Shown here piece by piece: positions 549 through 57,049 of a DNA stretch of 64,000 nucleotides. Numbering within the stretch: the stretch's first letter is position 1; each line of letters starts with the position of its first letter. A model generated the notes under the pieces. It worked only from the letters and a program-made list of their open reading frames with translations. It was not told where the DNA came from and did no database searches. The stretch lies in assembly GCA_964489835.1 (NCBI GenBank), contig CAZBBC010000005.1:26123-90122 (forward strand), given 5' to 3'. This DNA is from an uncultured Calditrichota bacterium (GTDB taxonomy: Bacteria > Calditrichota > Calditrichia > JAJRVZ01). The translations under genes and the position numbers were made by a program.

Positions 549-1943
549 TCAAACATCTAAAAGGGCTCCCCTCTGTGTTAAAATCTGACGTACTTTCTTA
601 AAATTCACGCTGCGAGGGTTACATTTCTGTTTAATCGCCAGGGCCGTGGTTATCCCTGCAGCCTGTCCCATCATCGATCCGGTGGTACTCACGCGTGCTG
701 ATGAGAGCGCCAGCTGATCGGCCGAAAAACAGCGTCCGGCCATCATTAAATTTTTTCCGTCTTTTGCAATCAATGAGCGTATCGGAATCTGGTATGGAGG
801 TACTTCTAATTGATCTTTTGGTAAAATATAGGTGCGTTTATCATCATCAGGTTTATGACCGTCCAGATAATAGGTTCCCCGGGCGACACCATCTTCAAAT
901 GCGCGTCCGGCACGCAGATCATCAACGGTGAGTACGTAATCACCCAGTATCCGGCAGCCTTCACGAATACCAATAATTGGAGAACAATGATCCAATAACC
1001 AGTTTTTTTTCTCTACTCTCTGGAAATAATCTAATACTTCCATCATTCGTCGGCGGGCGTGGATCTCCGCGGTTGTTAGACTTTCTGTGTTTGTTGAATC
1101 AAACATGGGTATTTTAATTTTAATCGCATTGGCACCGGGGCCATCCGGCCAGATACTGGTCATTGGCAGATCTTCCTTGGTTTCAATACGCTGAAACCAG
1201 CCTTCTGGGAGTTGAATCTTTGCATATTCCGGGTCAACATGACGAATAAAAAACATCAGTGACATAGGTAATTGCAGATTATCCGAAGGTCTGCCCTTTA
1301 TTGTCTGAAAACCGAGAGAGCGGGCGACATCAGCTTCCCCCGTACAATCAATAAATTGCTTCGCCCGGATGGCTTCTAATCCCGATTTACCACTGACCAA
1401 ACACTCGGTAATCTGACCATTTTTTATCTGAGCATCTACAAATCGGGTATGCAAAAGTAACTTAACCTTGCGCCGGTAAAGAAGCTCTTGCAGAATAATT
1501 GCCAGGATTTCATAATGAAAGACAGAATCACGTTTGGGACCTCCTAATGCCTGAAAATCTTTCAGATCGGTGAGAATGGAATCAAATACTTCACCCTGCC
1601 CATTCATCTGACCACAAAAATTAGCCACACCGCCGGTTGTTAACATTCCACCGGTTACAGCAAATCTTTCAATGAGTATAACCTTAGCACCGGATTTAGC
1701 GGCAGCGCAGGCAGCAGAGATTCCGGCAATTCCACCACCGACAACAACGATATCGGCTTCATAGCGGACGGGCACCTTACGTGTATATTGAATATCCTGA
1801 CTATCCGATGTTGTGCTGTCCGGTGACGAATCGGGAAGTTTTTTGTTTTTTGGTTGGAAAGCATGCGCAGAAAGAACAGATGCGCCTGCTGTTGCCCAGG
1901 CTGTCTTAGTTAAAAATATTCTTCTAGTCCAGTCTTTTATCAT
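549..1943 (-). CDS. FAD-dependent oxidoreductase (PF12831-like), secreted via TAT-type signal
   Basis: 464-aa ORF; N-terminal RRIFLTKTAWATAGASVLSAHA twin-arginine signal; dinucleotide fold VVVGGGIAGISAACAAAKSGAKVILIER. Confidence 0.7.
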   Translation of the reverse strand: MIKDWTRRIFLTKTAWATAGASVLSAHAFQPKNKKLPDSSPDSTTSDSQDIQYTRKVPVRYEADIVVVGGGIAGISAACAAAKSGAKVILIERFAVTGGMLTTGGVANFCGQMNGQGEVFDSILTDLKDFQALGGPKRDSVFHYEILAIILQELLYRRKVKLLLHTRFVDAQIKNGQITECLVSGKSGLEAIRAKQFIDCTGEADVARSLGFQTIKGRPSDNLQLPMSLMFFIRHVDPEYAKIQLPEGWFQRIETKEDLPMTSIWPDGPGANAIKIKIPMFDSTNTESLTTAEIHARRRMMEVLDYFQRVEKKNWLLDHCSPIIGIREGCRILGDYVLTVDDLRAGRAFEDGVARGTYYLDGHKPDDDKRTYILPKDQLEVPPYQIPIRSLIAKDGKNLMMAGRCFSADQLALSSARVSTTGSMMGQAAGITTALAIKQKCNPRSVNFKKVRQILTQRGALLDV

Positions 1944-1999
1944 TTATCCTCCTTTTTCTTTTCTTGTCATCCAATGCGGTTTATGTGGGTGATTTTTTT

Positions 2000-2066
2000 A
2001 CCACAGAGCACACGAAGTTTTTAAATATTTTTATTATCTTCGTGGGCTTCGCGCACTTCGTGGTTC
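2000..2066. repeat. heptamer inverted-repeat element (CACAGAG/CACGAAG arms flanking AT-rich loop)
   Basis: accacagagcacacgaag ... tttttaaatatttttattat ... cttcgtgggcttcgcgcacttcgtggtt; same architecture as elements at 17608, 34204, 42835, 50730, 57050. Confidence 0.6.
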
Positions 2067-11086: not shown

Positions 11087-11929
11087 TTAAAGGACTTTTT
11101 TTATTAATTGAATACCGCCTGCCTCCACAGAAATAATTCTCTTTTTGTAAAGAGCACCAATTGCTTTTTTGAATGTTTTCTTACTCACTCCAAACCACTC
11201 ATAGACAATTTGTGGGGAGCTTTTGTCGGTGAGGGAAATATATCCCCCCTCTTTTTCTATTATTTGAACGATTTTTTTCGATAAATCATCTATTTTTTCA
11301 TAACCCGGTTTGTATAAACAAAGGTCTATTTTTTTGTCTTCTCTTACTTTATTAATAAATCCTTTTATTTTCTGTCCTCTTTTTAATGGTTGGAAAACCT
11401 CATTTTTATAAAGAATACCCCGGTGGGTATTATTAATAATCGCCTGAAAGCCGATGTCAGTCTGATTCTCGATCAACAGATCCACGGTTTGTCCTTTCTG
11501 ATACTCAACCACCTGCTTATCAAGAAATTTATCAAGTTTCGATGAAGCAGCAATTCGATTGCTTTTATGATCCAGATAGACAAAGACAATATAGGATTGG
11601 CCCTCTTTCATTTTTTGCTTCTGTTCGCGAAAGGGCACCAGCAGATCTTTTTGTAAACCCCAGTCAAGAAAGGCTCCGACAGAACTTTCCGAAACAACTT
11701 TTAGAAAAGCAAATTCGCCAACCAGGGCATAAGGTTTCTCGGTAGTGGCAATGATCAGGTCTTCGGAGTCAAAGTATATAAAAACCCGGATACGGTCATC
11801 TATGGTACATTTCTCAGGCACGTATCGGTTCGGTAGTAATATTTCACCAAGATCTTCTCCATCAAGATACACACCAAAGTCCACTTTTTTTAGTATCCTG
11901 AGGTTATTAAATTTTCCAATTTCTACCAT
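11087..11929 (-). CDS. S1 RNA-binding domain protein, CvfB/YitL family
   Basis: 280 aa; S1-like repeats plus C-terminal winged-helix region typical of CvfB (GEILLPNRYVPE, SESSVGAFLDWGLQKDLLVP). Confidence 0.7.
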   Translation of the reverse strand: MVEIGKFNNLRILKKVDFGVYLDGEDLGEILLPNRYVPEKCTIDDRIRVFIYFDSEDLIIATTEKPYALVGEFAFLKVVSESSVGAFLDWGLQKDLLVPFREQKQKMKEGQSYIVFVYLDHKSNRIAASSKLDKFLDKQVVEYQKGQTVDLLIENQTDIGFQAIINNTHRGILYKNEVFQPLKRGQKIKGFINKVREDKKIDLCLYKPGYEKIDDLSKKIVQIIEKEGGYISLTDKSSPQIVYEWFGVSKKTFKKAIGALYKKRIISVEAGGIQLIKKVL

Positions 11930-12660: not shown

Positions 12661-13677
12661 TCATTTTATCCAGTACTCTCTGAGTCTGTAAAATTCTTTA
12701 AACATTACCTCAGCGATCGTCTCACTCACTCCGATACCTTCAGGATCTCCATAATTGAAAACAATAAAACCACCTTCCGGTGTAGACCAGTTCTCAATCA
12801 ACTCTCTGGCTTCGGCCCGCACCGCTTTGCTGTCCTCTTTCGGCAATGTGGCCTGGATGTCAACGGTGGTCAGAAAACAAATTCTCCCGGCAAAAGATTC
12901 CCCGATCTCCTTTATGCCGTAAGTTTGTGGTTGTCCCATATTCAGTACATCCGCACCCATATCTATAAAATAGGGTACAAAATCGTTCACCCGCCCGCAA
13001 CTATGCAAAATAACATGCCATCCATGTCCATGAATAACATTGAACAGCTGTGTGTACCTGTCAAAAAAATATTCCATAAAGACTTCCGACGAAACGATAG
13101 TACCGTTTTGGGTACCCCAATCATCGGTAAGAAAAAGGCCATGCACCCGGTTGCCAAATTGTTTGGCCGCTTCGTTAATATGATCGATCTTATGATTCAG
13201 GATCATATCAAGTACCTGGTGTGTTTTTTTGGGCTCCAGATAAAAATCTTCAAGGGTTTGGCGAAAACCATGCAGCATGTACAGCCGTTCGAAAAGAGTA
13301 AAATGACTGGTCAGAACAACATATCGATTAGCAGCATCCCGGATTTCTTTTTCAATTCTTTGGAAATAGAAGGGATTTCGCGGGTCCGGCGGGATGTAGG
13401 TTGACAGTTTACTCCATTCCTCGAGGGGATGACCGACGACTTGACCCATGTTTTTGACCGCGGTTCTTTTCCATTGACAACCCCAGTCATCTCCTGCAGG
13501 ATTATCAAAAAACCACCCGTTTTCCTGACGGTCCATTTCCCAGCAATCACAGACATCATTAGGAAAATTTTTTATTACAGAGGATAGTTTTTTACCCCAG
13601 GAGCCTCCCAGGAAGAAGGGCAAACGTGGTGGTCTGTCGAATTCTATGGCCCTTCGAACAATCTCAGTGCTTTCCAT
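12661..13677 (-). CDS. uroporphyrinogen decarboxylase (URO-D) family protein, MtaA/CmuA-like
   Basis: 338 aa with URO-D fold signature stretches (FDRPPRLPFF, LHSCGRVNDFVPYFIDMGADVLN); probably not a haem-pathway enzyme given the context. Confidence 0.65.
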   Translation of the reverse strand: MESTEIVRRAIEFDRPPRLPFFLGGSWGKKLSSVIKNFPNDVCDCWEMDRQENGWFFDNPAGDDWGCQWKRTAVKNMGQVVGHPLEEWSKLSTYIPPDPRNPFYFQRIEKEIRDAANRYVVLTSHFTLFERLYMLHGFRQTLEDFYLEPKKTHQVLDMILNHKIDHINEAAKQFGNRVHGLFLTDDWGTQNGTIVSSEVFMEYFFDRYTQLFNVIHGHGWHVILHSCGRVNDFVPYFIDMGADVLNMGQPQTYGIKEIGESFAGRICFLTTVDIQATLPKEDSKAVRAEARELIENWSTPEGGFIVFNYGDPEGIGVSETIAEVMFKEFYRLREYWIK

Positions 13678-13906
13678 TGAATTTTTTTTAAGGGTAACTT
13701 TTTCCGGACTAAAATTAATTACTCATCCGATATTTTTGCCTGTCGAATCTAAATAATTCACTAACCTGAATTATTCACCACGAAGATCATCCTTCGAGGT
13801 TTATGCTTTTATAGCCAAAAACTTTGTTGTTTTAACAAAATTTTTACAAACTGAATATATTCATTTAACGCAGAGACCGCAGAGATTTTTTTATAATACA
13901 TTTTTT

Positions 13907-14008
13907 AATTCGTGAAAATTCGTGTCAGTCTGCGCCTGATCCGGCTTCGACGGATAATTCGTGGACTTCTTTTTTGGATTGCAGCAATAGGCTGCGGCAT
14001 GAATAGAC
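13907..14008 (-). repeat. gene-end structured repeat, family A copy 1 (about 97% identical to 21437-21536)
   Basis: aattcgtgtcagtctgcgcctgatccggcttcgacggataattcgtggacttcttttttggattgcagcaataggctgcggcatgaatag; 3 mismatches in 91 nt against the reverse complement of 21437-21527; lies 88 nt 3' of the sialidase-like gene in the same relative orientation as the other copies. Confidence 0.8.
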
Positions 14009-14095
14009 CAGGCTAATTACCCAACCGTAATAAATCTAAAATAATATTTAATACAAACCAATCATTAATATAGGTCATTCGATTTATTGATGAGT

Positions 14096-15274
14096 TCAAG
14101 GAGCTGAAACCGGTGTCGTATCGGATGATCTATTTTTTTCGCGAAAGTTTTTTATTCGGTGAAACGTCAGATAATTTGCATCATGGGCATTATGTGCCCC
14201 GCCGAGGCCGTCCTCAAATGCTGTCCGTGAAACAGCAACAATATCATTACCTTCGAATAGCCAATCGACATATTGAAATCCTGATTTTTCGAAATCCTGC
14301 GAGCGTAATACAACAAAACGCACCGACCATTCCAACAAATCCTTTGACGAAATCAGTGCCAGGGTATTGCGGGTGCGCTCCGCGTTCCATTTACCAACAT
14401 CATCGGGATGAATCCAATTAGTGAGCGACCAGTAAAGATTGCTTTTGGTATCATGGTGAATACTAAATTTTTTGCATCCTCCCGGGAAATCGATAAAATC
14501 AGTTTTATCATCAAAAGATATGTATTTTCCATTGTTGGAGATCCGGACCAATGCTGCTTTACCACCTTTTGTCGGTTCATGCACACGCAGTATATTGACA
14601 AGTTTATCGTCCGGAGTGATGACAATATTACCCTCCAACCAGCCGCTGTAGGGTTCCCAGTCGCCCCACTGTAAATGATTGCTGATGGTCCAGTTCTCCG
14701 CAGAAAGGAGGTTGGCATCAGCGGGGGCACTCATCACAAACGGCTGGAAGCCGCTACCCCATCGTCCGGTAACTTTTTCCCAGGCCCGCCAGATGCGGTC
14801 ATTATGAATAACTACCGGTACCGGGGCACAATGGTATTGACCATCCCTCCGCAAAATACCCGATTGATTCGAAGGTTCCGTCCAGGTTAAACCACCATCG
14901 TCAGATCGACGAATGATCACATAACCATCTGCCTTACTGGTACCAATAAGATACAAATTGTCGGCATGAACAAATAATGAGGACCACCACTGACCATCAA
15001 TATCGGTCATCACTTCCCATGTTTCCCCTTTGTCACTTGATCTATGGATTCGTGTTCTGTTATTCGATGAACCGGGGCCAAAGAAATCATGAGAGGCGAT
15101 AAAGTCTCCATTCGGAAGAATGGCAATGCTGGGAGAGCCGATATATTGCATTGAAGAAGCGGGAGAATGATCGATAACGATTCCCGGAACTTTTGAATGA
15201 TCAACCGTGGATTTAGTCAAACATCCCACAACGCTTAAGGCAACAGTGAACATGATAAATTTAAATATATTCAT
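14096..15274 (-). CDS. BNR/Asp-box repeat glycoside hydrolase (sialidase-like), lipoprotein
   Basis: Signal MNIFKFIMFTVALSVVGC; two Asp-boxes SDKGETW and SDDGGLTW. Confidence 0.65.
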   Translation of the reverse strand: MNIFKFIMFTVALSVVGCLTKSTVDHSKVPGIVIDHSPASSMQYIGSPSIAILPNGDFIASHDFFGPGSSNNRTRIHRSSDKGETWEVMTDIDGQWWSSLFVHADNLYLIGTSKADGYVIIRRSDDGGLTWTEPSNQSGILRRDGQYHCAPVPVVIHNDRIWRAWEKVTGRWGSGFQPFVMSAPADANLLSAENWTISNHLQWGDWEPYSGWLEGNIVITPDDKLVNILRVHEPTKGGKAALVRISNNGKYISFDDKTDFIDFPGGCKKFSIHHDTKSNLYWSLTNWIHPDDVGKWNAERTRNTLALISSKDLLEWSVRFVVLRSQDFEKSGFQYVDWLFEGNDIVAVSRTAFEDGLGGAHNAHDANYLTFHRIKNFREKNRSSDTTPVSAP

Positions 15275-17570: not shown

Positions 17571-17607
17571 TTCTCAGTCCTTTGCTTTATACAGCAGTGT
17601 TAAAAGT

Positions 17608-17746
17608 AACCACGAAGCACACGAAGATATTATTATTGATTTTATAGAAAAAATGCAATACTAAAATTTGAACAGGAATTCCTTTATAGATTTACAATAA
17701 ATATTTTTTTTATGCTTTCGTGCTCTTCGTGCGCCTCGTGGTGATT
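17608..17746. repeat. heptamer inverted-repeat element (CACGAAG arms, 90-bp AT-rich core)
   Basis: left aaccacgaagcacacgaag; right ctttcgtgctcttcgtgcgcctcgtggtgatt (RC carries cacgagg/cacgaag/cacgaaa). Confidence 0.7.
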
Positions 17747-18760: not shown

Positions 18761-18944
18761 CTTATTCTTCTCTTAGTAATTCGAAATCATTGTTTTTTAA
18801 TATCATAGCACAGCCCAAGGCTGCAAATAAAGAACAAATAATCCGTGGATAAAAGTTTTTGACTGTAAAACAATAATGGTACAATATAATTTAAAAATAG
18901 CAGTTTTAAAATAGTATCATATGTTACGGTATCTGTTTATTTTT

Positions 18945-19000
18945 TGACAGGATAATCCCGACTGGGTCGGGATCCAAAAAACGGACAGGATTTACAGGAT
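18945..19000 (+). repeat. GACAGGAT-flanked hairpin motif, copy 1 (copy 2 at 51016-51074)
   Basis: ttttttgacaggataatcccgactgggtcgggatccaaaaaacggacaggat; 8-bp stem atcccgac/gtcgggat; about 88% identical to 51016-51074. Confidence 0.7.
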
Positions 19001-19347
19001 GATAAAAACAATGAATCATCAGTTATCAAAAAATATCAAGTTTCACCCGTTTATTGCTATTTATATCATGAATGTCTGGTTAAAAAAATCGATTCAATAG
19101 ATGTAACCGGATACTCCTGATGTTATATATTAATCTTTGTAGTGCATAACAGTCTCTGGAATGAGCTACTCGGTTGATTGAATTTGAATTTAATTGAAAT
19201 CGAAGGGTTGATTAACTAATTTGAAGAAAATAAATTAGTGCATCAGTGATTTTTTTAATAGATACTCACATAAATTTAAGCGAGTAAAATACCAGTGGAA
19301 AAATTGGTGCTTAAGAATAATCGAACATCAAAAAAATTGGAGTTTTA

Positions 19348-21435
19348 ATGGCCATCTTAAGCAAAGAAAAACAGCTTAAGAAAGAGCTGTCGTTATTCAA
19401 CATTTATACCATTGCCACTGGAGCCACCATTGCCTCTGGTTTCTTTCTGTTACCGGGTTTGGCCTATGCCCAGGCTGGTCCAGCCATGGTGCTTAGCTAT
19501 CTGATAGCGGCAATCCCGGTTATTCCGGCCTTGTTCAGCACATCTGAACTTTCGACAGCAATGCCGCGTGCCGGCGGCATTTATTTTTTCCTGGACCGCA
19601 GTATGGGGCCGCTAATGGGCACCATTGGTGGTATAGGAACCTGGCTGGCTCTGATACTGAAAACAGCTTTTGCATTGGTGGGTATTGGTGCCTATATGCG
19701 TTTGTTCTTACCTCAAATTCCAATGTTACCACTGGCTGCTTTTTTCGCCATTCTTTTTGGTATCGTCAATCTTTTAGGTGTAAAAAAAGCCGGTATCTTT
19801 CAGGGTATATTTGTTATAGGCCTGTTGCTGCTTCTGGGCCTATTTTCAGGAATCGGTTTAACATATTTGAATTTCCAGAATTTCAATGGTTTTTTTGACA
19901 AGGGATTCAATTCAATATTTGCTACCGCCGGTCTTGTTTATGTCAGTTATATCGGGCTTTCTAAGATCGCCAGTGTTTCTGAAGAAGTTAAAAATCCGGA
20001 TAAAACGATACCCTTGGCAATGTTTCTGGCACTGGGCACGGCGATTTTGGTATATACTATTGGTACTTTGGTTATGATCGAAGTGATACCGGCCGAAAAA
20101 TTAACCAACGATCTGACACCGGTAGCCTCCGCGGCCGAAATTATGATAGGAGAGTGGGGCGCGATCTTGATGACCACCGCTGCAATCTTGGCTTTTTTAT
20201 CAGTAGCAAATGCAGGAATTCTCAGTTGTTCACGCTATCCGCTGGCGATGAGCCGTGACCATCTAATGCCCCGTTTTTTGCGCTCTTTCAGTAAACAAAA
20301 AACGCCAAAATACGCTATCCTGATCACCGTAATATTTATTTTACTGATGCTCTTACTCCTTGATCCCGCAAAGATTGCTAAACTGGCCGGTGCCTTCCAG
20401 TTACTTCTTTTTGCACTGCTTTCACTTGCTGTTATTGTCATGAGGGAAAGCCGATTAGATTCTTATGATCCCGGATTCCGTTCCCCCTTATATCCATGGA
20501 TGCAAATTTTTGGGATGATTGCTCCCTGTTGGCTGATCATTGAAATGGGCTGGTTTCCGTCTATTTTTGCACTGGCATTGGTTGGATTGGGCACATTTTG
20601 GTATTTTTATTATGGAAAGAAAAGGGTCGTCAGGGACGGTGCCATTTACCATATTTTTGCCCGTCTTGGTCAGCGACAGTTCGAAGGTCTTGATATTGAA
20701 TTGAGAAGCATTTTAAAAGAAAAGGGTTTGCGTGATAAGGATCCGTTTGATGCTGTCGTTGCCAGTTCTGTATTTATTGATATTAATGAAAAAACTTCTT
20801 TTGAAGAAATCGTAAAAAAGGCCTCCTCAAGTTTATCAAAAAAATTTCACTGCGATGCCAAACTATTAGAAAGATCATTTATGGAGGGTACCCAAGTAGG
20901 GGCAACTCCGGTTTCACACGGTACCGCACTCCCGCACCTTCGTATTCAGGGAATGCCGCATTCTGAAATGATCATGGTTCGCACACAGATCGGCATCACG
21001 GTTGATTTTGATACAAATCTTTTAGGGGAGCAGGATGCGGATAATCCCATATATGCATTATTCTTTTTAGCCAGCCCGGAAGATAATCCGGGGCAGCATT
21101 TACGTATCCTGGCCCAGATTGCCAGCCATGTGGATAATGAAAATTTTATTAATCAATGGCTTGATGCCAATAATGAACAGGAATTAAAAGAGCTGCTTCT
21201 GCGGGAGGACCGGTATATCTCTTTGCAGCTGACAGCTGGTACAACAACCGAAACACTGATTAACTGTGAGATTCGAAACATTGAGCTGCCTGTGGGAAGT
21301 CTGATTGCGATCATTCACAGAAGGGGAGAAATGATAATTCCGAGAGGACAAACGGTTCTGCATGAGCATGACCGTTTAACCATTATCGGTTATCCCAAGG
21401 GTATTCAGGAATTGTACGATAAGTATTTAACCTGA
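19348..21435 (+). CDS. APC-superfamily amino-acid permease fused to PTS EIIA(Ntr/Fru-type) and TrkA_C regulatory domains
   Basis: 695 aa; roughly 12 TM permease domain (aa 1-430); EIIA-2 motif SHGTALPHLRIQG with conserved His; C-terminal TrkA_C-like GSLIAIIHRRGEMIIPRGQTVLHEHDRLTIIG. Confidence 0.8.
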   Translation: MAILSKEKQLKKELSLFNIYTIATGATIASGFFLLPGLAYAQAGPAMVLSYLIAAIPVIPALFSTSELSTAMPRAGGIYFFLDRSMGPLMGTIGGIGTWLALILKTAFALVGIGAYMRLFLPQIPMLPLAAFFAILFGIVNLLGVKKAGIFQGIFVIGLLLLLGLFSGIGLTYLNFQNFNGFFDKGFNSIFATAGLVYVSYIGLSKIASVSEEVKNPDKTIPLAMFLALGTAILVYTIGTLVMIEVIPAEKLTNDLTPVASAAEIMIGEWGAILMTTAAILAFLSVANAGILSCSRYPLAMSRDHLMPRFLRSFSKQKTPKYAILITVIFILLMLLLLDPAKIAKLAGAFQLLLFALLSLAVIVMRESRLDSYDPGFRSPLYPWMQIFGMIAPCWLIIEMGWFPSIFALALVGLGTFWYFYYGKKRVVRDGAIYHIFARLGQRQFEGLDIELRSILKEKGLRDKDPFDAVVASSVFIDINEKTSFEEIVKKASSSLSKKFHCDAKLLERSFMEGTQVGATPVSHGTALPHLRIQGMPHSEMIMVRTQIGITVDFDTNLLGEQDADNPIYALFFLASPEDNPGQHLRILAQIASHVDNENFINQWLDANNEQELKELLLREDRYISLQLTAGTTTETLINCEIRNIELPVGSLIAIIHRRGEMIIPRGQTVLHEHDRLTIIGYPKGIQELYDKYLT

Positions 21436-21436
21436 C

Positions 21437-21536
21437 CTATTCATACCGCAGCGTATTGCTGCAATCCAAAAAAGAAGTCCACGGATTATCCGTCGAAGCC
21501 GGATCAGGCGCAGACTGACACGAATTAACACGGATT
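21437..21536 (+). repeat. gene-end structured repeat, family A copy 2
   Basis: Starts 2 nt after the permease stop codon; reverse complement of copy 1. Confidence 0.8.
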
Positions 21537-21613
21537 AAAACTAAAATAATTATTAATAAATAATAACATCGCTGCGCCGCTGCGAGAAATGAAGAATTCG
21601 AGTACCAAAAATT

Positions 21614-21672
21614 TTGCTAAAAAACAAAGTTTTTGGAATAATAGCATAGCGTAGCGAGATGGGGTGGGGCAG
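21614..21672. repeat. repeat module M (ttgctaaaaaacaaagtttttggaataatagcatag) plus partial GC-rich hairpin-family fragment
   Basis: Module M about 92% identical to 50920-50958; agcgtagcgagatggggtggg is the RC of cccaccccRtctcgctacgct found at 47761, 55040 and 59668. Confidence 0.65.
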
Positions 21673-21699
21673 TAATCCACGAACTTCACGAAATTTATT

Positions 21700-22446
21700 C
21701 TATTTCCCCGGTATATTTCTATGCAGTTTCACCGGAACGACCAGTTTTTTACGCATTCGAATATTGAGCATCTCCACGCCAACCGAAAAAGCCATCGCAA
21801 AATATATATAGCCTTTTGGAACATGCACATCAAAACCTTCGACCATTAGAGTAACACCGACCAAAAGCAAAAATGAAAGTGCAAGAATCTTGATCGTTGG
21901 GTGTGTTTCAACAAATTCTCCTAATGATTTTGCCGCGGATAGCATGACCACAACCGCCAGAACGATAGCGACCGCCATTATAGAAACGTGTTCTACCAGA
22001 CCGATCGCTGTGATCACTGAATCCAGAGAAAAAACAATATCCAGAACGGTAATCTGTATCAATACCATTCCCACACTGGTTGCAGCAACTTTGGGGTGCC
22101 TATTTTCTTTACCTTCTAAACTATGGTGAATCTCATGGGTCGCTTTTGCCAGAAGAAAGAGACCGCCTCCGATCAGAATGATATCACGTCCTGAAATTGC
22201 CTGGCTAAATACCGAGAACCATGGTTTGGTTAACCCCATCACCCAGGAAATGGAAAACAACAGGGCCAGGCGGGCAATCATCGCAAGGCTGAGCCCAATT
22301 TTTCTCGCAGACGCCTGTTGATTTCGTGGGAGCCGGCCCACAAGAATTGAGATAAATATAATATTATCGATGCCCAAAACAATCTCTAAGGCAATTAATG
22401 TACCTAAAGCAATCCATCCCTCGGGGCTTGCTATCCATTCAAACAT
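21700..22446 (-). CDS. TerC family integral membrane protein
   Basis: EIVLGIDNIIFISIL and FSLDSVITAIGL TerC motifs. Confidence 0.85.
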   Translation of the reverse strand: MFEWIASPEGWIALGTLIALEIVLGIDNIIFISILVGRLPRNQQASARKIGLSLAMIARLALLFSISWVMGLTKPWFSVFSQAISGRDIILIGGGLFLLAKATHEIHHSLEGKENRHPKVAATSVGMVLIQITVLDIVFSLDSVITAIGLVEHVSIMAVAIVLAVVVMLSAAKSLGEFVETHPTIKILALSFLLLVGVTLMVEGFDVHVPKGYIYFAMAFSVGVEMLNIRMRKKLVVPVKLHRNIPGK

Positions 22447-34108: not shown

Positions 34109-34203
34109 TGGGTCCTTGTTTATCGGTTAGACAATGTGAAATTAATAATATTCCAGGAATTATAAAATTTTTGTATATTATGCTATTATGACTAATAGCT
34201 TAT

Positions 34204-34283
34204 ATCCACGGATTACACGGATTAAAACTAAAATAATAATAATTTTTAGATGAAATCCGTGCTAATCCGTGTAATCCGTGGAC
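34204..34283. repeat. heptamer inverted-repeat element (CACGGAT arms)
   Basis: atccacggattacacggatt ... aatccgtgctaatccgtgtaatccgtggac; followed at 34297-34330 by a family-A fragment tttgcagcagtgggctgtggtatgaatagatc. Confidence 0.7.
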
Positions 34284-34343
34284 AAATTCTTTTATGTTTG
34301 CAGCAGTGGGCTGTGGTATGAATAGATCAAATTAAAAAGCAGA

Positions 34344-34595
34344 TTGGTACCAATGGAAAAAACGGTAAAGATATTTACACTCGAGAAAAAAGATGAAACA
34401 CTTATTCCGCTGATACGAGAAACCTTTGCAGAGGAAAATATTGCCATTGAAATTCGAAGTAAGTATGATACGGCTTATGATGGACTATTTATCGGTCAGA
34501 AAGGCCTGGCGGATATCTATGTAATGAAAAAGGACGCCAAACGATCTTTGGAAATACTTAACGATTTGCTGGTGGATCTTTCTTCCAGTCTTTAA
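34344..34595 (+). CDS. hypothetical small protein (possibly DUF2007-like). Doubtful call
   Basis: 83 aa; overlaps 38 nt of the convergent Cys-rich gene; lies where a 3' element of the cbb3 operon is expected. Confidence 0.25.
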   Translation: MVPMEKTVKIFTLEKKDETLIPLIRETFAEENIAIEIRSKYDTAYDGLFIGQKGLADIYVMKKDAKRSLEILNDLLVDLSSSL

Positions 34596-37873: not shown

Positions 37874-37910
37874 TTTTCTCCCTAATCAGATAAATAATTT
37901 TATAAAAAAT

Positions 37911-38000
37911 AACCACCACGCCAGTAGGCGGATCCGCCCACTGGCGGGCTCAGAGTGATCCTCTGTGGGCTCTGCGTGCCCGCCTACTGGCGTGGTGGTT
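37911..38000 (-). terminator. intercistronic hairpin (21-bp perfect stem, 48-nt loop) with U-tract between ccoNO and ccoQ; candidate attenuator/partial terminator
   Basis: aaccaccacgccagtaggcgg (37911-37931) and ccgcctactggcgtggtggtt (37980-38000) are perfect reverse complements; on the minus strand the stem is followed by AUUUUUUAUAAAAUU; the stem begins at the ccoNO stop codon. Confidence 0.65.
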
Positions 38001-40126
38001 TAGTTCTTATTATCCCCTTTAATGTCTGTTCCTAGTCGTTGCAGATAGGCAATCAGAGCAATGATTTCCTTATCTGATTTGGTCTCAATACCGGCTTCCT
38101 TCAGCCTTGCCTTGATCTCTTCTGCCTGATGTTTAAGATCGGGTAGCGCTTTTTTATCATAATCGGTTGGATAAGGAACACCAAGACTTTGCATGATACG
38201 GATTTTCCGCTCTGTGGAAGACGTATTTAGTTGATTGGTAATCAACCAGGGAAAGGGCGGCATTATCGAACCCGGTGACATGAGTTCCGGTTCTAGCATA
38301 TGATTATAATGCCAGGCATCAGGATATCGGCCACCCTCACGGTGCAGATCAGGACCGGTCCGTTTTGAGCCCCATTGGAAAGGGTGATCGTAAACGAATT
38401 CTCCGGCTTTTGAATATTCACCGTATCGTTCCGTTTCTGATCGGAACGGACGGATCATTTGTGAGTGACAGTTATAACAACCTTCCCGCACATAAATATC
38501 CCGGCCTTCCAGTTCAAGAGGTGTATATGGTTTTACACTCATGATGGTTGGTATATTAGATTTAACCAGAAACGTTGGAATTACCTCAACCAGGCCACCG
38601 ATTAATATGGCAATAATGGCGGCGATAGAAAACTGTATCGGCCGGCTTTCCAGCCAGCGGTGGGCATATATCTTACCGGTTTCATGGATTTTCTGCACTT
38701 GGAGGGGAAGGGCTTTTGCCTTTTCATCGGCGACGATCGAGCCTCTTTTCACTGTTCTGGCCAGATTGACTATCATAAAGACAACACCGGTATAATAAAG
38801 TGTACCGCCTATGGCCCGCAGGATGTACATGGGAACAATCTGTAATACGGTTTCGAGAAAAAGTGGATATTGCAGATAACCCTCGGCAGTAAATTCTTTC
38901 CACATCAAACCCTGGGTAATACCGGCCCAATACAAAGGTATGACGTAGAAGATCATCCCCAGGGTGGCTATCCAGAAGTGAAAATTTGCCAGTTTTATAG
39001 AGAAAAGTTTCGTATTGTAAAGACGTGGAATCAGCCAGTAAAGAATGCCAAAGGTAAGTAAGCCATTCCAACCCAGGGTACCGACATGTACATGGGCGAT
39101 TGTCCAATCGGTATAATGCGAGAGCGCATTAATGCTTTTTATTGCCAGCATAGGACCTTCAAAGGTGGCCATGCCGTAGGCGGTAACTGCAACGACCATA
39201 AATTTGAGTATGGGATCTTCGCGCACGCGATCCCAGGCCCCACGAAGCGTAAGCAAACCATTCAACATCCCCCCCCAGGACGGAGCGATTAGCATGATAG
39301 AAAATACCGTGCCTAAGGATTGTGCCCAGTCGGGGAGAGCGGTATAGAGTAAATGATGTGGTCCGGCCCAGATATAGATAAAAATTAAGGACCAGAAATG
39401 GACAATTGACAAACGATAAGAATAAATCGGCCGGTTAGCCGCTTTTGGAAGAAAATAATACATCAAACCCAAATAAGGTGTGGTAAGAAAAAAAGCAACG
39501 GCATTATGACCATACCACCATTGAACAAGGGCGTCCTGCACGCCGGCATAAACCGGATAACTCTTAAGAAAGGTCACCGGAATTTCAATTGAATTCACCA
39601 CATGCAGAATTGTTATTGTAAAGAAAGTGGCAAGATAAAACCAGATGGCCACATACATATGTCTTTCTCGGCGTTTTATAATCGTACCGATCATATTGAT
39701 ACCAAAAGCCAGCCAAATAACAGCGATAGCAACATCGATCGGCCATTCCAGTTCCGCATATTCCTTGCTGGCGGTAATACCGAGGGGTAAGGTGATGGCG
39801 GCCGATAAAATGATCAGCTGCCAGCCCCAGAAGTGAAATTTACTCAGGAAATCATTGTACATCCTTGATTTGCACAAACGCTGCAAAGAATAATAGATAC
39901 CCATGAATATGCCGTTTCCAACAAAAGCAAAAATAACTGCATTGGTATGTAAGGGCCGGATTCGGCTGAACGTGGTGAAGGGAATACCGAGATTCCATGC
40001 AGGCAAGAACATCTGGAAAGCAATGATAAGGCCGACAAGCATGCCGACGGAACCCCACAGTATCGTAGCAAATGCAAAGTTCCGTACTATCCTGTTGTCA
40101 TAACTAAATGTCTCAAACCCAGCCAT
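38000..40126 (-). CDS. ccoNO: cbb3-type cytochrome c oxidase fused subunits I+II (CcoN-CcoO)
   Basis: 708 aa; 12+ TM haem-copper oxidase domain with conserved His; C-terminal CcoO part with CYNCHSQMIRP. Confidence 0.95.
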   Translation of the reverse strand: MAGFETFSYDNRIVRNFAFATILWGSVGMLVGLIIAFQMFLPAWNLGIPFTTFSRIRPLHTNAVIFAFVGNGIFMGIYYSLQRLCKSRMYNDFLSKFHFWGWQLIILSAAITLPLGITASKEYAELEWPIDVAIAVIWLAFGINMIGTIIKRRERHMYVAIWFYLATFFTITILHVVNSIEIPVTFLKSYPVYAGVQDALVQWWYGHNAVAFFLTTPYLGLMYYFLPKAANRPIYSYRLSIVHFWSLIFIYIWAGPHHLLYTALPDWAQSLGTVFSIMLIAPSWGGMLNGLLTLRGAWDRVREDPILKFMVVAVTAYGMATFEGPMLAIKSINALSHYTDWTIAHVHVGTLGWNGLLTFGILYWLIPRLYNTKLFSIKLANFHFWIATLGMIFYVIPLYWAGITQGLMWKEFTAEGYLQYPLFLETVLQIVPMYILRAIGGTLYYTGVVFMIVNLARTVKRGSIVADEKAKALPLQVQKIHETGKIYAHRWLESRPIQFSIAAIIAILIGGLVEVIPTFLVKSNIPTIMSVKPYTPLELEGRDIYVREGCYNCHSQMIRPFRSETERYGEYSKAGEFVYDHPFQWGSKRTGPDLHREGGRYPDAWHYNHMLEPELMSPGSIMPPFPWLITNQLNTSSTERKIRIMQSLGVPYPTDYDKKALPDLKHQAEEIKARLKEAGIETKSDKEIIALIAYLQRLGTDIKGDNKN

Positions 40127-40318: not shown

Positions 40319-42765
40319 AATCGAAAACCCAATTTTTTCCCGATAAAAGCAGTGGCACCGATAGTAAATAAAATAACCGTGAGTGAACTGGCGGGCATCA
40401 GAACGGCTGCAATCAGAGGCGAAAGAGTCCCCCTTACAGCAAAAAATAAACCAACAATATTATATATAAATGAAATTAAAAAACTAATAAAAATAATCCT
40501 AATACTAATCTTTGAAAATCTCAGAAATTGGGGTAAGTGCTTGAACTGACTGGCATCCAAAATACCATCGGAAGCCGGTGTAAAGGTGTTGACATCCTCA
40601 GAAATCGAAATGCCGGCATCGCTTTGCATGAGGGCCCCTGCATCATTGAGCCCATCCCCGATCATCAGAACTTTCCCGGATTTCTGTTGAATATTCTTAA
40701 TAAAATTCAATTTGTCATAGGGAGTCTGATTAAAGAACAAGTATTTACCGTTACCAAATACGCGGGCCAGATTTTCTTTTTCTCCATCGTTGTCACCGGA
40801 AAGCAAATAAACCCGGAAGCGATTGCCTAATCGCTCGATCATCCGTCTGATCCCTTTCCGGTAATTAAGAGGAAGACTGAAATATCCCCGATATTTCCCG
40901 TTGATCTCTACATGAACAATACTTGCCAGGGATTGATTTGAAAGATAGATTGCATTTGGAATTAACCGTTCGGATCCTAGTTTTACCCTATTACCGGAAA
41001 TATTTCCGGTCAGGCCCTGACCCGGATACTCCATGAAATCGGTTATGCTCGGCAATTGATCAGCCTTTATAGCCGAATAGAGACGTCTGCTCAGGGGATG
41101 CGTTGATTGTTTTACCAGTGACCGGACCCATTGAATTTCCTCCGGATTCAGACCGTGAGGACGATCTTTAGTTGGGTTGAAGGCGACAGATGATCCACCG
41201 GAATGGGTCAACGTTCCGGTTTTGTCAAATACAATCGTTTGTACTTTGGCGAGTATCTCAATTATGGATACATTTTTAAGATAAAAATTATTTTTGCCGA
41301 AAATTCGTAAGGTATTACCCAGTGTAAAAGGTGTTGAAAGAGCCAGAGCACAGGGACAGGCAACAATAAGTACGGCAGTAAAGGCATTAAGTGCCAGCGA
41401 TATATTTTCCGGCAGCCAATACATGGCCGATAAGGTGGCCACACTTAAAACAATAAAAGTAAAATACCTGCTAACGGTATTGGCCAGGGTGGTAATTTTG
41501 CTTTCATTCGTATGCTTGTTGAATGCATCATCGTTCCAAAGTTGGGTTAGGTAACTTTGGGAAACATCTTTTATCACCTCCATCTCAATCTGGCTGCCGA
41601 TATGCATCCCTCCGGCATATATGATATCCCCGGAAATTTTCTCAACCGGTGTAGACTCACCGGTGACAAAGCTGTAATCGACTAATGAGGGACCCTTGAT
41701 CAGGACGCCATCAGCGGGAATTAATTCTTTATTGGCAAGTATAATTCTGTCACCAATTTTAAGTTTAGCCAGGGGAATAATAACTTCTTTGTTTTTTTCT
41801 TTCCGGGTTACAGAAAGGGGAAAATAAGAACGATAATCACGATCAAAAGAAAGAGCATCATACGTTTTTTTCTGAAAGAGTTTTCCGACTAAAAGTAGAA
41901 ATACCAAACCAGCAAAAGAATCCAGATAACCACCTCCCTCGCCGGCAACAATATGCCAGATACTGCGGCTAAACAGAGTAATAATCCCAAGGGAAATTGG
42001 GACGTCCATATTGACAGATGCTTGTTTTAGGGATGTAAGGGCTGATTTGAAGTAGCCCATACTGCTATAGAATAAAACAGGTAGGGCAAGAAAAATACTT
42101 AAATAACCAAAGAAAGACCGGAATTCCAGATCAAGAGTTTCATTGACCGCCAGATATTCAGGGAAACTCAGGAGCATAATATTGCCGAAAGCAAAACCGG
42201 CGACTCCGATCTGCAGATAAAGTTCTTTATCCGTGCTTTTTTGCAACTGTTTCCGGATAGAGGCTAAATTAATCTCCGGTTCATATCCGAGGGAAGAGAG
42301 AACTTCAACGATTTTTCGCAGCGAGGTTTTGGTCTCAAGAAAAGCGAGAGATAATTCTTTTCGTAAAAAATTTACTTTTGATTCAATAATACCAGGATCA
42401 ACCCGGTAGAGATTTTCCAGCAACCAAATACAAGAACTGCAGTGGATCATGGGAATCTTGAAGGAGACTTTGTTGATATTGCCGTCGCTAAAATTCAGTA
42501 ATTGACGTTTAACAGTATTATCATCCAAATAACTATACTTAGAAGAAATACCTGATTCCAGTGGTGTGGTTCCCGGGGCCCGGGCCAGCGAATAATAAGC
42601 ACAGAGATCCTTCTCTTCTAATAATTCATACACCAATCGACAGCCATTACAGCAAAACACCTTTTCACCAATTTGGATATTGGTATTGGGGCATGAATCG
42701 CCACAGTGATAGCATTCAATTCGGGCATCTTTTGCCTTGATTTTCGATTTCTGAACAGTATTCAT
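40315..42765 (-). CDS. ccoI: copper-translocating P1B-type ATPase (CcoI/FixI)
   Basis: N-terminal CYHCGDSC metal site; CPC in ACPCALALSTP; DKTGTLT; GDGLNDAGAL. Confidence 0.9.
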   Translation of the reverse strand: MNTVQKSKIKAKDARIECYHCGDSCPNTNIQIGEKVFCCNGCRLVYELLEEKDLCAYYSLARAPGTTPLESGISSKYSYLDDNTVKRQLLNFSDGNINKVSFKIPMIHCSSCIWLLENLYRVDPGIIESKVNFLRKELSLAFLETKTSLRKIVEVLSSLGYEPEINLASIRKQLQKSTDKELYLQIGVAGFAFGNIMLLSFPEYLAVNETLDLEFRSFFGYLSIFLALPVLFYSSMGYFKSALTSLKQASVNMDVPISLGIITLFSRSIWHIVAGEGGGYLDSFAGLVFLLLVGKLFQKKTYDALSFDRDYRSYFPLSVTRKEKNKEVIIPLAKLKIGDRIILANKELIPADGVLIKGPSLVDYSFVTGESTPVEKISGDIIYAGGMHIGSQIEMEVIKDVSQSYLTQLWNDDAFNKHTNESKITTLANTVSRYFTFIVLSVATLSAMYWLPENISLALNAFTAVLIVACPCALALSTPFTLGNTLRIFGKNNFYLKNVSIIEILAKVQTIVFDKTGTLTHSGGSSVAFNPTKDRPHGLNPEEIQWVRSLVKQSTHPLSRRLYSAIKADQLPSITDFMEYPGQGLTGNISGNRVKLGSERLIPNAIYLSNQSLASIVHVEINGKYRGYFSLPLNYRKGIRRMIERLGNRFRVYLLSGDNDGEKENLARVFGNGKYLFFNQTPYDKLNFIKNIQQKSGKVLMIGDGLNDAGALMQSDAGISISEDVNTFTPASDGILDASQFKHLPQFLRFSKISIRIIFISFLISFIYNIVGLFFAVRGTLSPLIAAVLMPASSLTVILFTIGATAFIGKKLGFRL

Positions 42766-42834
42766 CGGTTTTGATCAATTTATAAATTTTTCTTGCATTT
42801 TTGGAGTCGCATACCGTGTTGATCTTAATATCAA

Positions 42835-42953
42835 CTTCGAAGAACACGAAGCACACGAAGTTTTTAATTATTAATATAATTTTTGTGTTAACTTCGATTT
42901 TGATAAAAAAATAGTCAATATAATATCTTTGTGACCTTCGTGGACTTCGTGGT
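42835..42953. repeat. heptamer inverted-repeat element (CACGAAG arms)
   Basis: cttcgaagaacacgaagcacacgaag ... ctttgtgaccttcgtggacttcgtggt. Confidence 0.7.
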
Positions 42954-43128
42954 AAAAGCTTTTTATATGTTCTAATTTGAACGGCCACAGGCCGTCGCTC
43001 ACCCAAGGGTGAGCCCTAGGATCTTTGCGTAATCTTTGTGGTCAAAAATTTACCCTGCTAGTTACTAATTTTGATTAGTTTTTATCTTCAGGGTAATCTG
43101 ATAATACATAAAATTTAGAAAAAGCCGT

Positions 43129-44044: not shown

Positions 44045-44160
44045 TATAGACTGGAGACATAGGTAACACTATATTTCCTTTTTACTTGGACAAAAACTCT
44101 CCCCCTATCCCCCTCTTTTGAAAAGAGAGGGGGAATTTTATTCATGAAACGTAATGAAAA
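44045..44160 (+). repeat. intergenic tandem-duplicated element, copy 1 (hairpin ccccctct/agaggggg + T-tract + atgaaacgtaatgaaaatgcaag)
   Basis: About 70-nt core near-identical to 44425-44510. Confidence 0.7.
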
Positions 44161-44394
44161 TGCAAGATTTCTTCTAAATGCAATAAAGAAAAGAATAGTA
44201 TTTGCAGTAAATATTAATCGGATTCTGCTCCCCTTCTCTTCTCAAGAGAAGGGGCTGGGGGATGAGTTTTTTAAATATAAAAAGAATAAACTTTATTTAA
44301 CCGGACACTAATGATATAAAATACTTAATAAGTAGGGATAATCAAAAAATAATAACTACCCCTCCATTGTTGTTTTGACCAGAGAGATGGATAA

Positions 44395-44525
44395 AAGGAT
44401 CCGGGGACATAGTTTACACTTTTTGTATCTTCTACTTGGATATAAACTCTCCCCCTGACCCCCTCTCTTGAAAAGAGAGGGGGAATTTTATTCATGAAAC
44501 GTAATGAAAATGCAAGAATTCTTTA
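44395..44525 (+). repeat. intergenic tandem-duplicated element, copy 2
   Basis: acttggatataaactctccccctgaccccctctcttgaaaagagagggggaattttattcatgaaacgtaatgaaaatgcaagaattc. Confidence 0.7.
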
Positions 44526-45775: not shown

Positions 45776-45880
45776 ATTGCTTCGCTAACGCTCGCAATGA
45801 CGGCCACATTATCGTCATTGCGAGTCACGAAGAATGAGTAGCCTGCCCGCCGACCGGCGGGACGAAGCAATCTAATGATT
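45776..45880. repeat. nested hairpin element between convergent genes
   Basis: gattgcttcg...cgaagcaatc outer arms; inner cgcaatgacg/cgtcattgcg and ccgccgaccggcgg palindromes. Confidence 0.6.
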
Positions 45881-45991
45881 CTATTAAATTCATCGATTAC
45901 TCTAATGAGTAAATCCTCTCATCAGTAATTTTAATCTAAATAATGTTATGATTCAACCTTCGTATTTTTCGTGGTAAATAAATGAATCAGG

Positions 45992-47760: not shown

Positions 47761-47836
47761 ACCCACCCCGTCTCGCTACGCTCGACACCCCTCCCTATCC
47801 GGCAAAGCCGGACAGAGAGGGGATGGGTGATGGTCA
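47761..47836 (+). repeat. GC-rich nested-hairpin element, copy 1
   Basis: acccaccccgtctcgctacgctcgacacccctccctatccggcaaagccggacagagaggggatgggtg. Confidence 0.75.
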
Positions 47837-50661: not shown

Positions 50662-50666
50662 AGAAA

Positions 50667-50744
50667 TCAGCTAATTAGCCTGATCTATTCATAGCGCAGC
50701 GATGCTGCAAACAAAAAAAAATAGTCCACGGATTCCACGGATTT
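50667..50744 (+). repeat. gene-end structured repeat, family A copy 3 (diverged), starts 6 nt after the GT22-like stop
   Basis: gctaattagcctgatctattcatagcgcagcgatgctgcaaacaaaaaaaaatagtccacggattccacggatt. Confidence 0.65.
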
Positions 50745-50919
50745 TATTTAAAAATTATTATTATTTTATTTTTTAATCCGTGCAAATCAGTTTCCGCCAT
50801 GTTGTATATCCCGTTTCACGGGATAGGAGGATCCGCTGTGGCGGATAATCTGCGTCATCCGTGTTCTATTAATATCGCTGCGGCGCTGTGAGAAATTAAT
50901 TATTCCGCTTTGTACAAAT

Positions 50920-50958
50920 TTTGCTAAAAAAACAAAGTTTTTTGGTATAATAGCATAG
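50920..50958 (+). repeat. repeat module M copy 2
   Basis: gctaaaaaaacaaagttttttggtataatagcatag. Confidence 0.65.
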
Positions 50959-51015
50959 ACGAGCCCATGGCTATAAAAAAGAAATAAATCAATCACTCCC
51001 GATGGAGGAATTTTT

Positions 51016-51074
51016 TAGACAAGATAATCCCGACAAAGTCGGGATCCAAAAAACGGACAGGATGGCAGGATAAA
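51016..51074 (+). repeat. GACAGGAT-flanked hairpin motif, copy 2
   Basis: ttttttagacaagataatcccgacaaagtcgggatccaaaaaacggacaggat. Confidence 0.7.
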
Positions 51075-53477: not shown

Positions 53478-53674
53478 ACCGGAGAACGGAAACCGGAGGC
53501 AGGAGACCGGATAAATAAAAAATTTGGAAATAGGAATTGGGAACTTGGAATTTCCCAACGGGCGGGAGGACGATATATTTTATCGGGGAGATTTGATTTG
53601 ACATTAAAACGTCGTGTTCTTCGTGCGCTCGGTGGTAAATATTTATGATCAAGTTAGTCGAGAAAACAGGTCGT

Positions 53675-57001: not shown

Positions 57002-57049
57002 TGAATGCTCACCAGCTTAAAATGGGTAGTTTAAAAAAATAACCACAGA

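Follow-up and report, generated by a model that had tools for sequence, protein, structure and literature searches.

Direct repeats of the heptamer TAACTGA have been described in intergenic DNA of Beggiatoaceae, Cyanobacteria and Bacteroidetes, where two to six copies often lie just upstream of start codons and a binding protein is suspected; 169 sets of direct repeats were counted, with one indirect repeat (MacGregor 2015, PMC4679880). In Caldithrix abyssi an intergenic 18-nt palindrome, aAACCGTTgaAACGGTTt, has been considered by its authors to resemble repetitive extragenic palindromes (REPs) (Kublanov et al. 2017, PMC5317091). The subject of the present analysis is a family of heptamer foldbacks, that is, hairpin-forming elements with inverted arms made of tandem heptamers, in a stretch of 64 kb (the window) from an uncultured bacterium of the Calditrichota, class Calditrichia (contig CAZBBC010000005.1). 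The explanation that we prefer, and to which we give about even chances, is that these foldbacks are fast-turnover non-coding repeats of the kind represented by REPs and bacterial interspersed mosaic elements (BIMEs) or by MITEs (miniature inverted-repeat transposable elements), carried within mosaic cassettes, and not a conserved regulator. It is shown below that the cassette has multiplied in intergenic regions across this lineage of Calditrichia and that it is quickly gained, lost, nested and recombined. As to how the foldbacks spread, we infer that propagation would take place in trans or by recombination, with IS200/IS605-type Y1 (HUH) transposases encoded elsewhere in the lineage as the candidate enzyme class. 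The heptamer, and not the whole arm, would be the unit recognised by the protein that handles the element, and effects on neighbouring genes (transcript-end hairpins, imported promoters) would be a by-product and not the elements' raison d'être.

Heptamer foldbacks as modules of mosaic cassettes

A mechanical scan of the window for CAC-heptamers repeated at period 9, with one mismatch allowed, returned 19 pairs against 3.0 +/- 1.2 in shuffles, an excess of about sixfold, and period 9 was also the most frequent period among exact heptamer pairs; the 9-bp spacing put forward in the original prediction is thus the commonest one and not the only one, as periods 8 and 10 were found too. Eighteen of the 19 arrays are intergenic (p = 2e-14) in a window that is 85% coding and 15% intergenic, with genes assigned from open reading frames (ORFs) and Pfam, and coding repeats were ruled out on this count. 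The units follow the consensus C-[A/G]-C-R-R-A-[G/T], with two to four units of one word per arm and usually 2-nt gaps. The left arm has two or three units of the form [A/T]CCAC-NNNN-NN-CACNNNN, after which come an AT-rich core of 20-89 nt and the inverted units, which end in GTGG[T/A]; in the window copies, which have inverted repeats at both termini, arms measure 16-27 nt and elements 60-140 bp, without internal ORFs. Loop lengths range from 5 to 89 nt across the window foldbacks, the number of units is often unequal between the two arms (two versus three), and the cores of the GAAG copies are unrelated to one another. Complete copies give strong predicted hairpins on either strand (z = -3.3 to -9.2), the predicted single-strand fold, whether of DNA or RNA, consisting of 7-bp helices with 2x2 internal loops between them and an AT-rich loop. 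Rfam gave no window match at gathering thresholds, and related and phage-like loci, searched in E-value mode, gave only sub-threshold generic hairpins (four miRNA-precursor models and the sRNA anti-hemB).

The following sites were catalogued in the window.

1998-2066: foldback with left arm CACAGAG-ca-CACGAAG, 20-nt AT core and right arm CTTCGTG-gg-CTTCGCG-ca-CTTCGTGG; z = -5.2 (minus strand) and -4.4 (plus strand) for the RNA fold; its end is 57 nt upstream of the FAD-oxidoreductase gene (549-1943, minus strand; Pfam)
13773-13802: arm fragment CACCACGAAGATCATCCTTCGAGG in the leader of a URO-D-like gene (12661-13677)
13866-13928: juxtaposed arms of different words (CGCAGAG twice and ATTCGTG twice), inside cassette copy 1; no fold (z = +1.2)
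17606-17745: foldback flagged originally, with CACGAAG twice, 89-nt AT core and right arm CTTTCGTG/CTTCGTG/CCTCGTGG; -41.3 kcal/mol and z = -7.1 when folded as the minus strand, in which both arm differences become G-U pairs; its end is 38 nt upstream of the Gfo/Idh/MocA gene
21476-21545, plus strand: left-arm array CACGGAT / CACGAAT / CACGGAT, split by a 31-nt hairpin insert, with no right arm
21672-21695, plus strand: lone direct array CACGAAC-tt-CACGAAA
34203-34284: foldback of the word CACGGAT with 2 + 3 units and near-perfect arms (z = -8.7 and -8.1); ends 96 nt upstream of the ECF sigma gene; its core is common to the GGAT subfamily
37908-38002: 21-bp perfect hairpin between ccoNO and ccoQ (-63.5 kcal/mol, z = -9.2)
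37955-37985: mini-foldback CGCAGAG-cc-CACAGAG-gatca-CTCTGAG, nested within the preceding hairpin
42833-42955: foldback of the word CACGAAG with 3 + 3 units and a 66-nt core, upstream of ccoI (z = -3.4 and -5.5)
45780-45990: CACGAAA-aa-TACGAAG ... CTTCGTG, a decayed remnant in the spacer of the convergent aminotransferase and MR_MLE genes
50724-50800: foldback of the word CACGGAT with a degraded right arm, in cassette copy 3 (z about -3.3)
53605-53637, plus strand: right-arm-only array GTCGTG-tt-CTTCGTG-cg-CTCGGTGG, 10 nt ahead of the CYTH gene start
57040-57126: foldback of the word CACAGAG between divergent ABC-transporter and PhzF genes (z = -4.4 and -5.1)

The architecture first described was present at all six full sites and both fragments, in the words CACGAAG, CACGGAT, CACAGAG and CACGAAT as stated, and extra sites were added to them, so that the family is denser than first described. 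The two arms of a copy, said to match one another, normally do carry the same word, the exception being 13866-13928, where CGCAGAG faces CACGAAT. The dense inverted-repeat family is likewise genuine, with the correction that its copies are sub-modules of longer repeats and not free-standing: by self-BLAST and alignment, the foldbacks are modules of a mosaic cassette of 230-330 bp that is present in at least four copies in the window, with an identity of 82-92%. In order, the cassette consists of TAATTAGCCTGA, which brings stops in three frames, CTATTCAT, a hairpin GCAGC-N3-5-GCTGC, an A-run, the heptamer foldback, optional GC-rich hairpins and an outward promoter-like end, TTGCTA-N17/18-TATAAT-AGCATA. 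The copies, with their start module (T) and promoter-like end module (P), are as follows.

13680-14050, minus strand: cassette; T at 13960-14022 (minus strand), P at 13802-13850 (minus strand)
21410-21720: cassette; T at 21423-21475 (plus strand), P at 21607-21648 (plus strand)
50660-51010: cassette; T at 50672-50723 (plus strand), P at 50909-50957 (plus strand)
34130-34350: partial cassette; T at 34286-34335 (minus strand)

A search of metagenome contigs with a 21-base pattern for the start module matched 116 loci of the same lineage, and downstream of the start hairpin these loci hold alternative modules, nested hairpins and foldbacks of many words. Cassette copies vary by insertion or deletion of whole modules, one of them having its core in flipped orientation, and inserts occur both within the arms and within the loops of foldbacks. 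In the GGAT subfamily one core is common to 12 foldback sequences from 11 distinct loci, which shows spread by copying; similarly, five copies of a subfamily in the related contig L002 can be aligned across about 170 bp, with a mean column identity of 66%. The mismatched arms at 13866-13928 are a recombinant junction, explained by the mosaic make-up of the cassette: the CTCTGCG arm is that of the promoter-like module in many copies and the ATTCGTG arm that of a neighbouring foldback. It was also observed that the core beside the array at 21476-21545 (21519-21560) has, relative to the start module, the opposite orientation to the core at 34225-34255 of the paralogous copy 34203-34284, a flip that would result from recombination between inverted arms.

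From its hexamers, the sole basis for this reading, we infer a putative promoter function of the end module. In many lineage copies a GC-rich hairpin such as ATCGCCACGGCGATCCGCCGCGGCGG lies between the two hexamers (for example at 3550-3585 of L202), and an insert of this kind would disrupt a sigma-70-type promoter there. At 21433 the TGA of the start module doubles as the stop codon of a permease gene; that the module always adjoins a gene stop codon was tried and rejected, since only 16 of 107 copies do so by a crude ORF criterion.

Comparison with relatives, for which syntenic loci spanning a range of divergence were used (L-numbers are labels of the compared contigs or loci), revealed a rapid turnover. 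The window has 19 arrays in 64 kb, L002 12 in 22 kb and L209 8 in 21 kb, and L212 and L214 have none in 21 kb each. Upstream of the Gfo/Idh/MocA gene the spacer of L202 is unalignable, yet its genes are about 96% identical in DNA to those of the window; the window has one CACGAAG foldback at this site and L202 a CACAGAG mini-foldback together with a CACAAAG foldback. Upstream of ccoI the window carries CACGAAG|CTTCGTG and L213 carries CGCAAAG|CTTTGCG, the word having switched on both arms together, L209 has a proximal CTTCGCG array only, L206 has a different hairpin, CCCTCCC...GGGAGGG, and no heptamer foldback was seen at this site in L206, L212, L214 or L002. The mini-foldback after ccoNO is common to the window and L206 (5866-5895). 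Where the window holds only the remnant at 45780-45990, L209 and L211 have intact CACGAAT foldbacks between convergent genes, and in the L209 foldback a variant unit, CACAAAT, is mirrored by ATTTGTG at the corresponding position of the opposite arm. Presence or absence between relatives is thus clear, with other repeats occupying the alternative alleles, and foldbacks therefore last for some time, switch to another word in all their units at once, decay and are replaced.

A 392-aa gene with a weak BNR_2 match (window 14096-15274) is absent from L202 (3157-3849), the genes being 96% identical; mosaic-repeat DNA lies at the boundaries of this indel and suggests that the gene was gained or lost through the repeats.

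The arms end 38-96 nt upstream of the starts of the FAD oxidoreductase, Gfo/Idh/MocA, ccoI, ABC (msbA-like) and ECF sigma genes, in agreement with the distance of 40-100 nt given originally, and copies also occupy spacers of each gene orientation (co-directional, divergent, convergent) and lie within the cco operon. The suggestion of promoter-embedding hairpins is unlikely, because relatives lack the elements or have different ones at the same sites, and because elements occur between convergent genes as well (L209, L211). The view of a fast-turnover foldback repeat is preferred because the elements are patchy in relatives, differ between strains at the same site and occupy all spacer types.

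Several observations weigh against this view. A precise empty site with clean insertion boundaries was not recovered among the compared relatives. The proximal arm upstream of ccoI persists in the window, L213 and L209, and such positional persistence could reflect function. Descent from a master copy explains neither the unpaired spacers that lie beside paired heptamers nor the presence of CACGAAG, CACAGAG, CACAAAG, CACGGAT and CGCGAAG in phage-like contigs of 47-69% GC, both described below. No autonomous element with the same arms was found in the window or between distant arms in phage contigs, the genomes having been searched as fragments. Furthermore, a Y1 transposase gene of the lineage, in L404, is preceded by ATCCTCTACGAGGAT palindromes (480-600) and not by heptamer foldbacks, its contig ending inside or next to the gene, and its link to the heptamer foldbacks is speculative. 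Two candidates for strain-level insertion polymorphism were found among lineage contigs, neither of them informative on foldbacks.

Arm matching and readings of the heptamer

In 0.9 Mb of lineage contigs 377 C-R-C heptamer arrays were found, and array pairs no more than 150 nt apart face inward in 88 cases, outward in 13 and in the same direction in 57. Identical words occur in 23 of the 88 inward pairs, and a further 20 pairs show one difference; under permutation 7.6 +/- 2.5 identical-word pairs were obtained (maximum 19 in 5000 trials), so the words of the two arms match more often than by chance. Covariation was assessed on 25 distinct foldbacks of relatives, picked irrespective of arm match, against 500 shuffles, a kind of test that overstates independence because the copies are related by descent.

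Cells paired: 82.8% versus 74.9 +/- 1.4% shuffled, 0 of 500 shuffles as high
Cells changed on both sides: 55 versus 32.1 +/- 4.5 shuffled, 0 of 500 as high
Covariation score: 0.346 versus 0.218 +/- 0.02 shuffled, 0 of 500 as high

The arms therefore do co-vary, the heptamer columns of the aligned copies exceeding every shuffle, and it is the further step from co-variation to selection for base-pairing, taken in the original prediction, that over-interprets the data. Two spacer columns are unpaired in 13 and 16 of the 25 foldbacks, and the spacers are complementary overall at 38% in the lineage set, compared with 53% in the viral set. Such unpaired spacers are not expected from simple arm duplication or from template-switching "correction" of a palindrome; unit-wise copying, alternatively, could give the matching of arm words. 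That the heptamer would be the recognised unit is proposed because units of an arm share one word (partly built in, as array detection demands like tandem units), spacers are unpaired, some arms carry different words (window 13866-13928; L104, L155, L165), lone or direct-orientation arrays exist (L166, L023, window 21672) and a small vocabulary recurs, with about ten words used within one lineage.

Two other readings are live and partly compatible with a fast-turnover repeat. In the first, which we consider possible and on balance rather unlikely, the arms are protein-binding arrays, each heptamer being the site of a small DNA-, single-stranded DNA- or RNA-binding protein that packs every 9 nt, in such a way that the arms match because both bind the same protein and not through pairing with each other. 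Ribbon-helix-helix proteins on tandem heptads or met-boxes and transposases on subterminal repeats are analogues of such an arrangement. Matching of heptamers between arms alongside variable, unpaired 2-nt spacers speaks for it, as do the tight phasing (2-nt spacers in 82% of viral and 54% of lineage arrays), the recurrence of a small, discrete vocabulary in unrelated genomes and phage-like contigs, and the existence of lone or direct arrays and different-word arms. On the other hand, some ten words per lineage would call for a large number of proteins or for lax recognition, a candidate binding protein was neither found nor linked to the arrays, the inward preference of 88 versus 13 and the unit-by-unit arm match in L209 fit pairing too, and patchy presence in close relatives together with copies between convergent genes speaks against a regulon. 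A CvfB-like protein that has a winged helix besides its S1 RNA-binding domains is also encoded in the window (11087-11929), and is named here solely because S1-domain and cold-shock proteins have been proposed elsewhere as binders of heptamer repeats.

In the second reading, which we hold to be unlikely, selection for pairing would maintain functional RNA hairpins that work in transcripts, between genes, as insulators, as 3'-end or stability elements or as sites of RNase processing, for which the REPs of Escherichia coli and the RNase III sites of phage T7 are precedents. The strong folds and the heptamer-column covariation above every shuffle are consistent with it, and so is the location of copies between phage structural genes and inside the cco operon. 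Strand tests were equivocal: where the arms of copies 17606 and 1998 differ, G-U pairs form on the strand which is sense for both flanking genes, and foldbacks linked to a start module fold better antisense to the module in 26 of 36 informative cases (26 versus 10, p = 0.001, a weak test on copies that are related by descent and not independent), but for copy 42833 the preference is reversed, and in the L002 copies it is for the strand antisense to their genes. Promoter and terminator scans gave no signal above shuffles at the three foldbacks scanned (17606, 42833, 57040); no U-tract or consistent T-run was seen at the foldbacks, the sole terminator-like match, at 42723-42737, lying outside the element. 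Moreover, a plain stem would need neither specific words nor identical tandem units, and the elements are dispensable at orthologous sites.

The words are not confined to the lineage. Viral contigs scanned for CCACGAAGNNCACGAAG gave many matches that were due to chance or coding, together with clear foldbacks in phage-like contigs of 47-69% GC, in which the typical form is TCAC-(CACGAAG-NN)3 ... (CTTCGTG-NN)3-GTGA. Raw match counts are no test of enrichment, as at least 120 matches were also obtained for a reversed-word control, and the frequency of an inverted partner was used instead: among the matches listed, it was present at 8 of 120 loci for the real pattern and at 0 of 120 for the control, and no outward-facing pairs occurred among the viral loci listed. 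Array-bearing IMG/VR contigs (L100, L108, L143, L150, L155, L156, L166, L167, L175, L182 and L194; 50-69% GC) have purine-rich spacers on the CAC strand, and phage-like contigs also hold arrays that had not been searched for (CACAGAG, CACAAAG, CACGGAT, CGCGAAG, CGCGGAG). In L175 the order of small GC hairpin, A-rich linker and foldback is repeated in a phage-like contig. The arms sit between ordinary phage genes, including structural ones, and the ORFs between distant arm pairs are ordinary phage genes with no transposase among them. As regards cultured phages, blastn of the phage-type foldback gave no real match, and Microcystis phage vB_MaeS-yong1, the nearest cultured relative of one array-bearing contig (portal protein 55% identical), has no arrays.

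These shared words in phage-like DNA hint at an unknown partner that recognises the heptamer. A bolder and doubtful proposal is that C-R-C-R-R-A-K words in inward arrays of 9-nt phase are the cis-element of a widespread undescribed system in bacteria of different phyla and in phages, with a small nucleic-acid-binding protein family or a hairpin-handling enzyme reading a discrete "vocabulary" of heptamers; in that case the foldbacks of the Calditrichia would represent one expansion of such a system and not a junk repeat private to the lineage.

Invertons, in which a site-specific recombinase flips the AT-rich core between inverted arms, are very improbable: inverted repeats do surround AT-rich cores just upstream of genes, and the core by array 21476-21545 is opposite in orientation to copy 34203-34284, but cores go down to a seemingly too short 5-20 nt (window 1998-2066; mini-foldbacks of L202 and L206), Pfam reveals no recombinase in the window, scanned cores give no promoter signal, and no orientation variant was seen, L001, the only second sample of the locus, being identical to the window.

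Some known elements were also rejected as candidates, namely DnaA boxes or origin-like iterons (too many copies, wrong consensus), attP arm-type and integron attC sites (cores too short, wrong consensus) and CsrA sponge RNA (GGA only in the GGAT and ACAGGAT words, in sites that would be base-paired).

Candidate enzymes, other repeat families and implications

No transposase, integrase or recombinase domain was detected by Pfam in the 47 ORFs of the window, nine of which have no Pfam hit at all, in line with the earlier statement that no transposase lies nearby. A MITE origin had been regarded as unsupported for this reason, and it cannot be so dismissed, as 12 GGAT copies share one core. Target-site duplications, proposed as a further check, were not visible by inspection flanking the (A)CCAC...GTGG(T) ends of the window copies, a test limited by nested contexts. 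Transposases of the IS200/IS605-type Y1 (HUH) class work on hairpins of single-stranded DNA and leave no target duplication behind, and the missing duplications are compatible with this class without being evidence for it. Genes for Y1 (HUH) transposases were found by tblastn in lineage contigs L404, L444 and L448, with an IS200 TnpA sequence as the query; the L404 ORF matches Pfam Y1_Tnp (4.7e-26) and scores above the cut-off of the NCBIfam IS200 model and below that of the REP_Tyr_transpos model.

A separate family is formed by a 15-nt palindrome, ATCCTCGTAGAGGAT, which occurs in four copies (two plus two inverted) at 51200-51438 of the window, contains the REP hallmark GTAG and is also found just upstream of the IS200-type Y1 gene in L404. 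This palindrome and the L404 gene look like a pair of the type formed by REPs and REP-associated tyrosine transposases (RAYTs), distinct from the heptamer foldbacks.

A second family of hairpin repeats is based on CCCCTCCC...GGGAGGGG (44083-44173, 44433-44523, 44229-44271, 47761-47822 and 55040-55101; also L206 1000-1060 and L211 10830-10880). One of its members is a 91-nt repeat with 93% identity. In L206 the family takes the place of the heptamer foldback at the ccoI site, and it resembles the "TMECO" intrastrand-triplex motif of E. coli (PMC4666352). The window further holds small hairpins of the form ATCC...GGAT and a repeated module (18940-19003 and 51011-51066) made of GACAGGATA, a hairpin ATCCCGAC-NNN-GTCGGGAT, CCAAAAAACG and ACAGGAT units. 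These ACAGGAT(G) units resemble the CsrA-binding consensus. A type IX secretion sorting domain and a fused CcoNO gene are also encoded in the window and, together with protein matches, assign it to the Calditrichota/Calditrichia.

If the preferred explanation is true, a single modular hairpin repeat makes up much of the intergenic DNA of an uncultured phylum-level lineage. This would affect annotation, as the cassette imports three-frame stops and promoter-like ends, metagenome assembly, as contigs may break at these repeats, and comparative genomics, as intergenic DNA becomes unalignable between strains whose genes are 96% identical. Paired heptamers alternating with unpaired dinucleotides, along with concerted word changes, constitute an unusually clean natural system, and this arm design could help to separate pairing selection, protein recognition and copy-correction as causes of concerted change in repeats. 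Specialists may be surprised by the phased-heptamer design and by its recurrence in unrelated phage-like DNA; were there a common partner, the same words in high-GC phage-like contigs would imply an unrecognised and widely distributed nucleic-acid recognition system.

Comparison with known systems

The foldbacks share with REP/BIME/REPIN elements their abundance as extragenic hairpins, their variability between strains and their grouping into mosaic clusters with other short motifs, a feature borne out here by the modular combinations, nesting and alternative modules seen in the cassette alignment and the 116 lineage copies. A short conserved core within variable stems (GTAG in REPs, C-R-C here) and the presence of Y1/HUH genes in the lineage are further similarities. 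In contrast, REPs are one continuous palindrome of 20-40 nt, whereas the elements described here have phased 7-nt arrays with unpaired 2-nt spacers and long AT-rich loops, and only the mini-foldbacks, of about 30 nt, fit the REP size. GTAG/CTAC was not found at the arm ends, the arms beginning with C-[A/G]-C and finishing in G-[T/C]-G, and GTAG occurs only in the separate ATCCTCGTAGAGGAT palindromes. Unlike in REP/RAYT systems, heptamer foldbacks were not seen to flank any Y1 gene, and the one gene looked at has palindromes of the GTAG-containing family ahead of it.

With bacterial MITEs (Correia/NEMIS, ERIC, Nezha) they have in common that they are non-coding, shorter than 350 bp, intergenic and multi-copy, with terminal inverted repeats, long hairpins, full-length alignability within subfamilies, outward promoter-like ends and stop codons. 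They differ in that no target-site duplication is visible and no cognate insertion sequence with the same ends was found, and also in that their arms are internally repetitive and shared across very different genomes, with cores unrelated between subfamilies. Eukaryotic FB elements and transposons with subterminal repeats (CACTA, hAT, Tn7/Mu-type ends) likewise have inverted arms of short units in variable number; their arms or sites are longer and their transposases known, and the analogy implies no homology.

The TAACTGA repeats resemble the present arrays as heptamers in intergenic DNA of distant phyla with no known mechanism, and differ in being a single word, essentially in direct orientation, with no inverted partner or hairpin. 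The C. abyssi palindrome aAACCGTTgaAACGGTTt comes from the same phylum and has a 7-2-7 layout of a heptamer and its inverse, but it is a single short palindrome of a different word, with no tandem arrays and no long loop. In conclusion, literature searches on the heptamer word, on Calditrichaeota repeats and on phased heptamers yielded analogues only, and the foldbacks are placed here among the interspersed hairpin repeats, as a variant that stands outside any named family.

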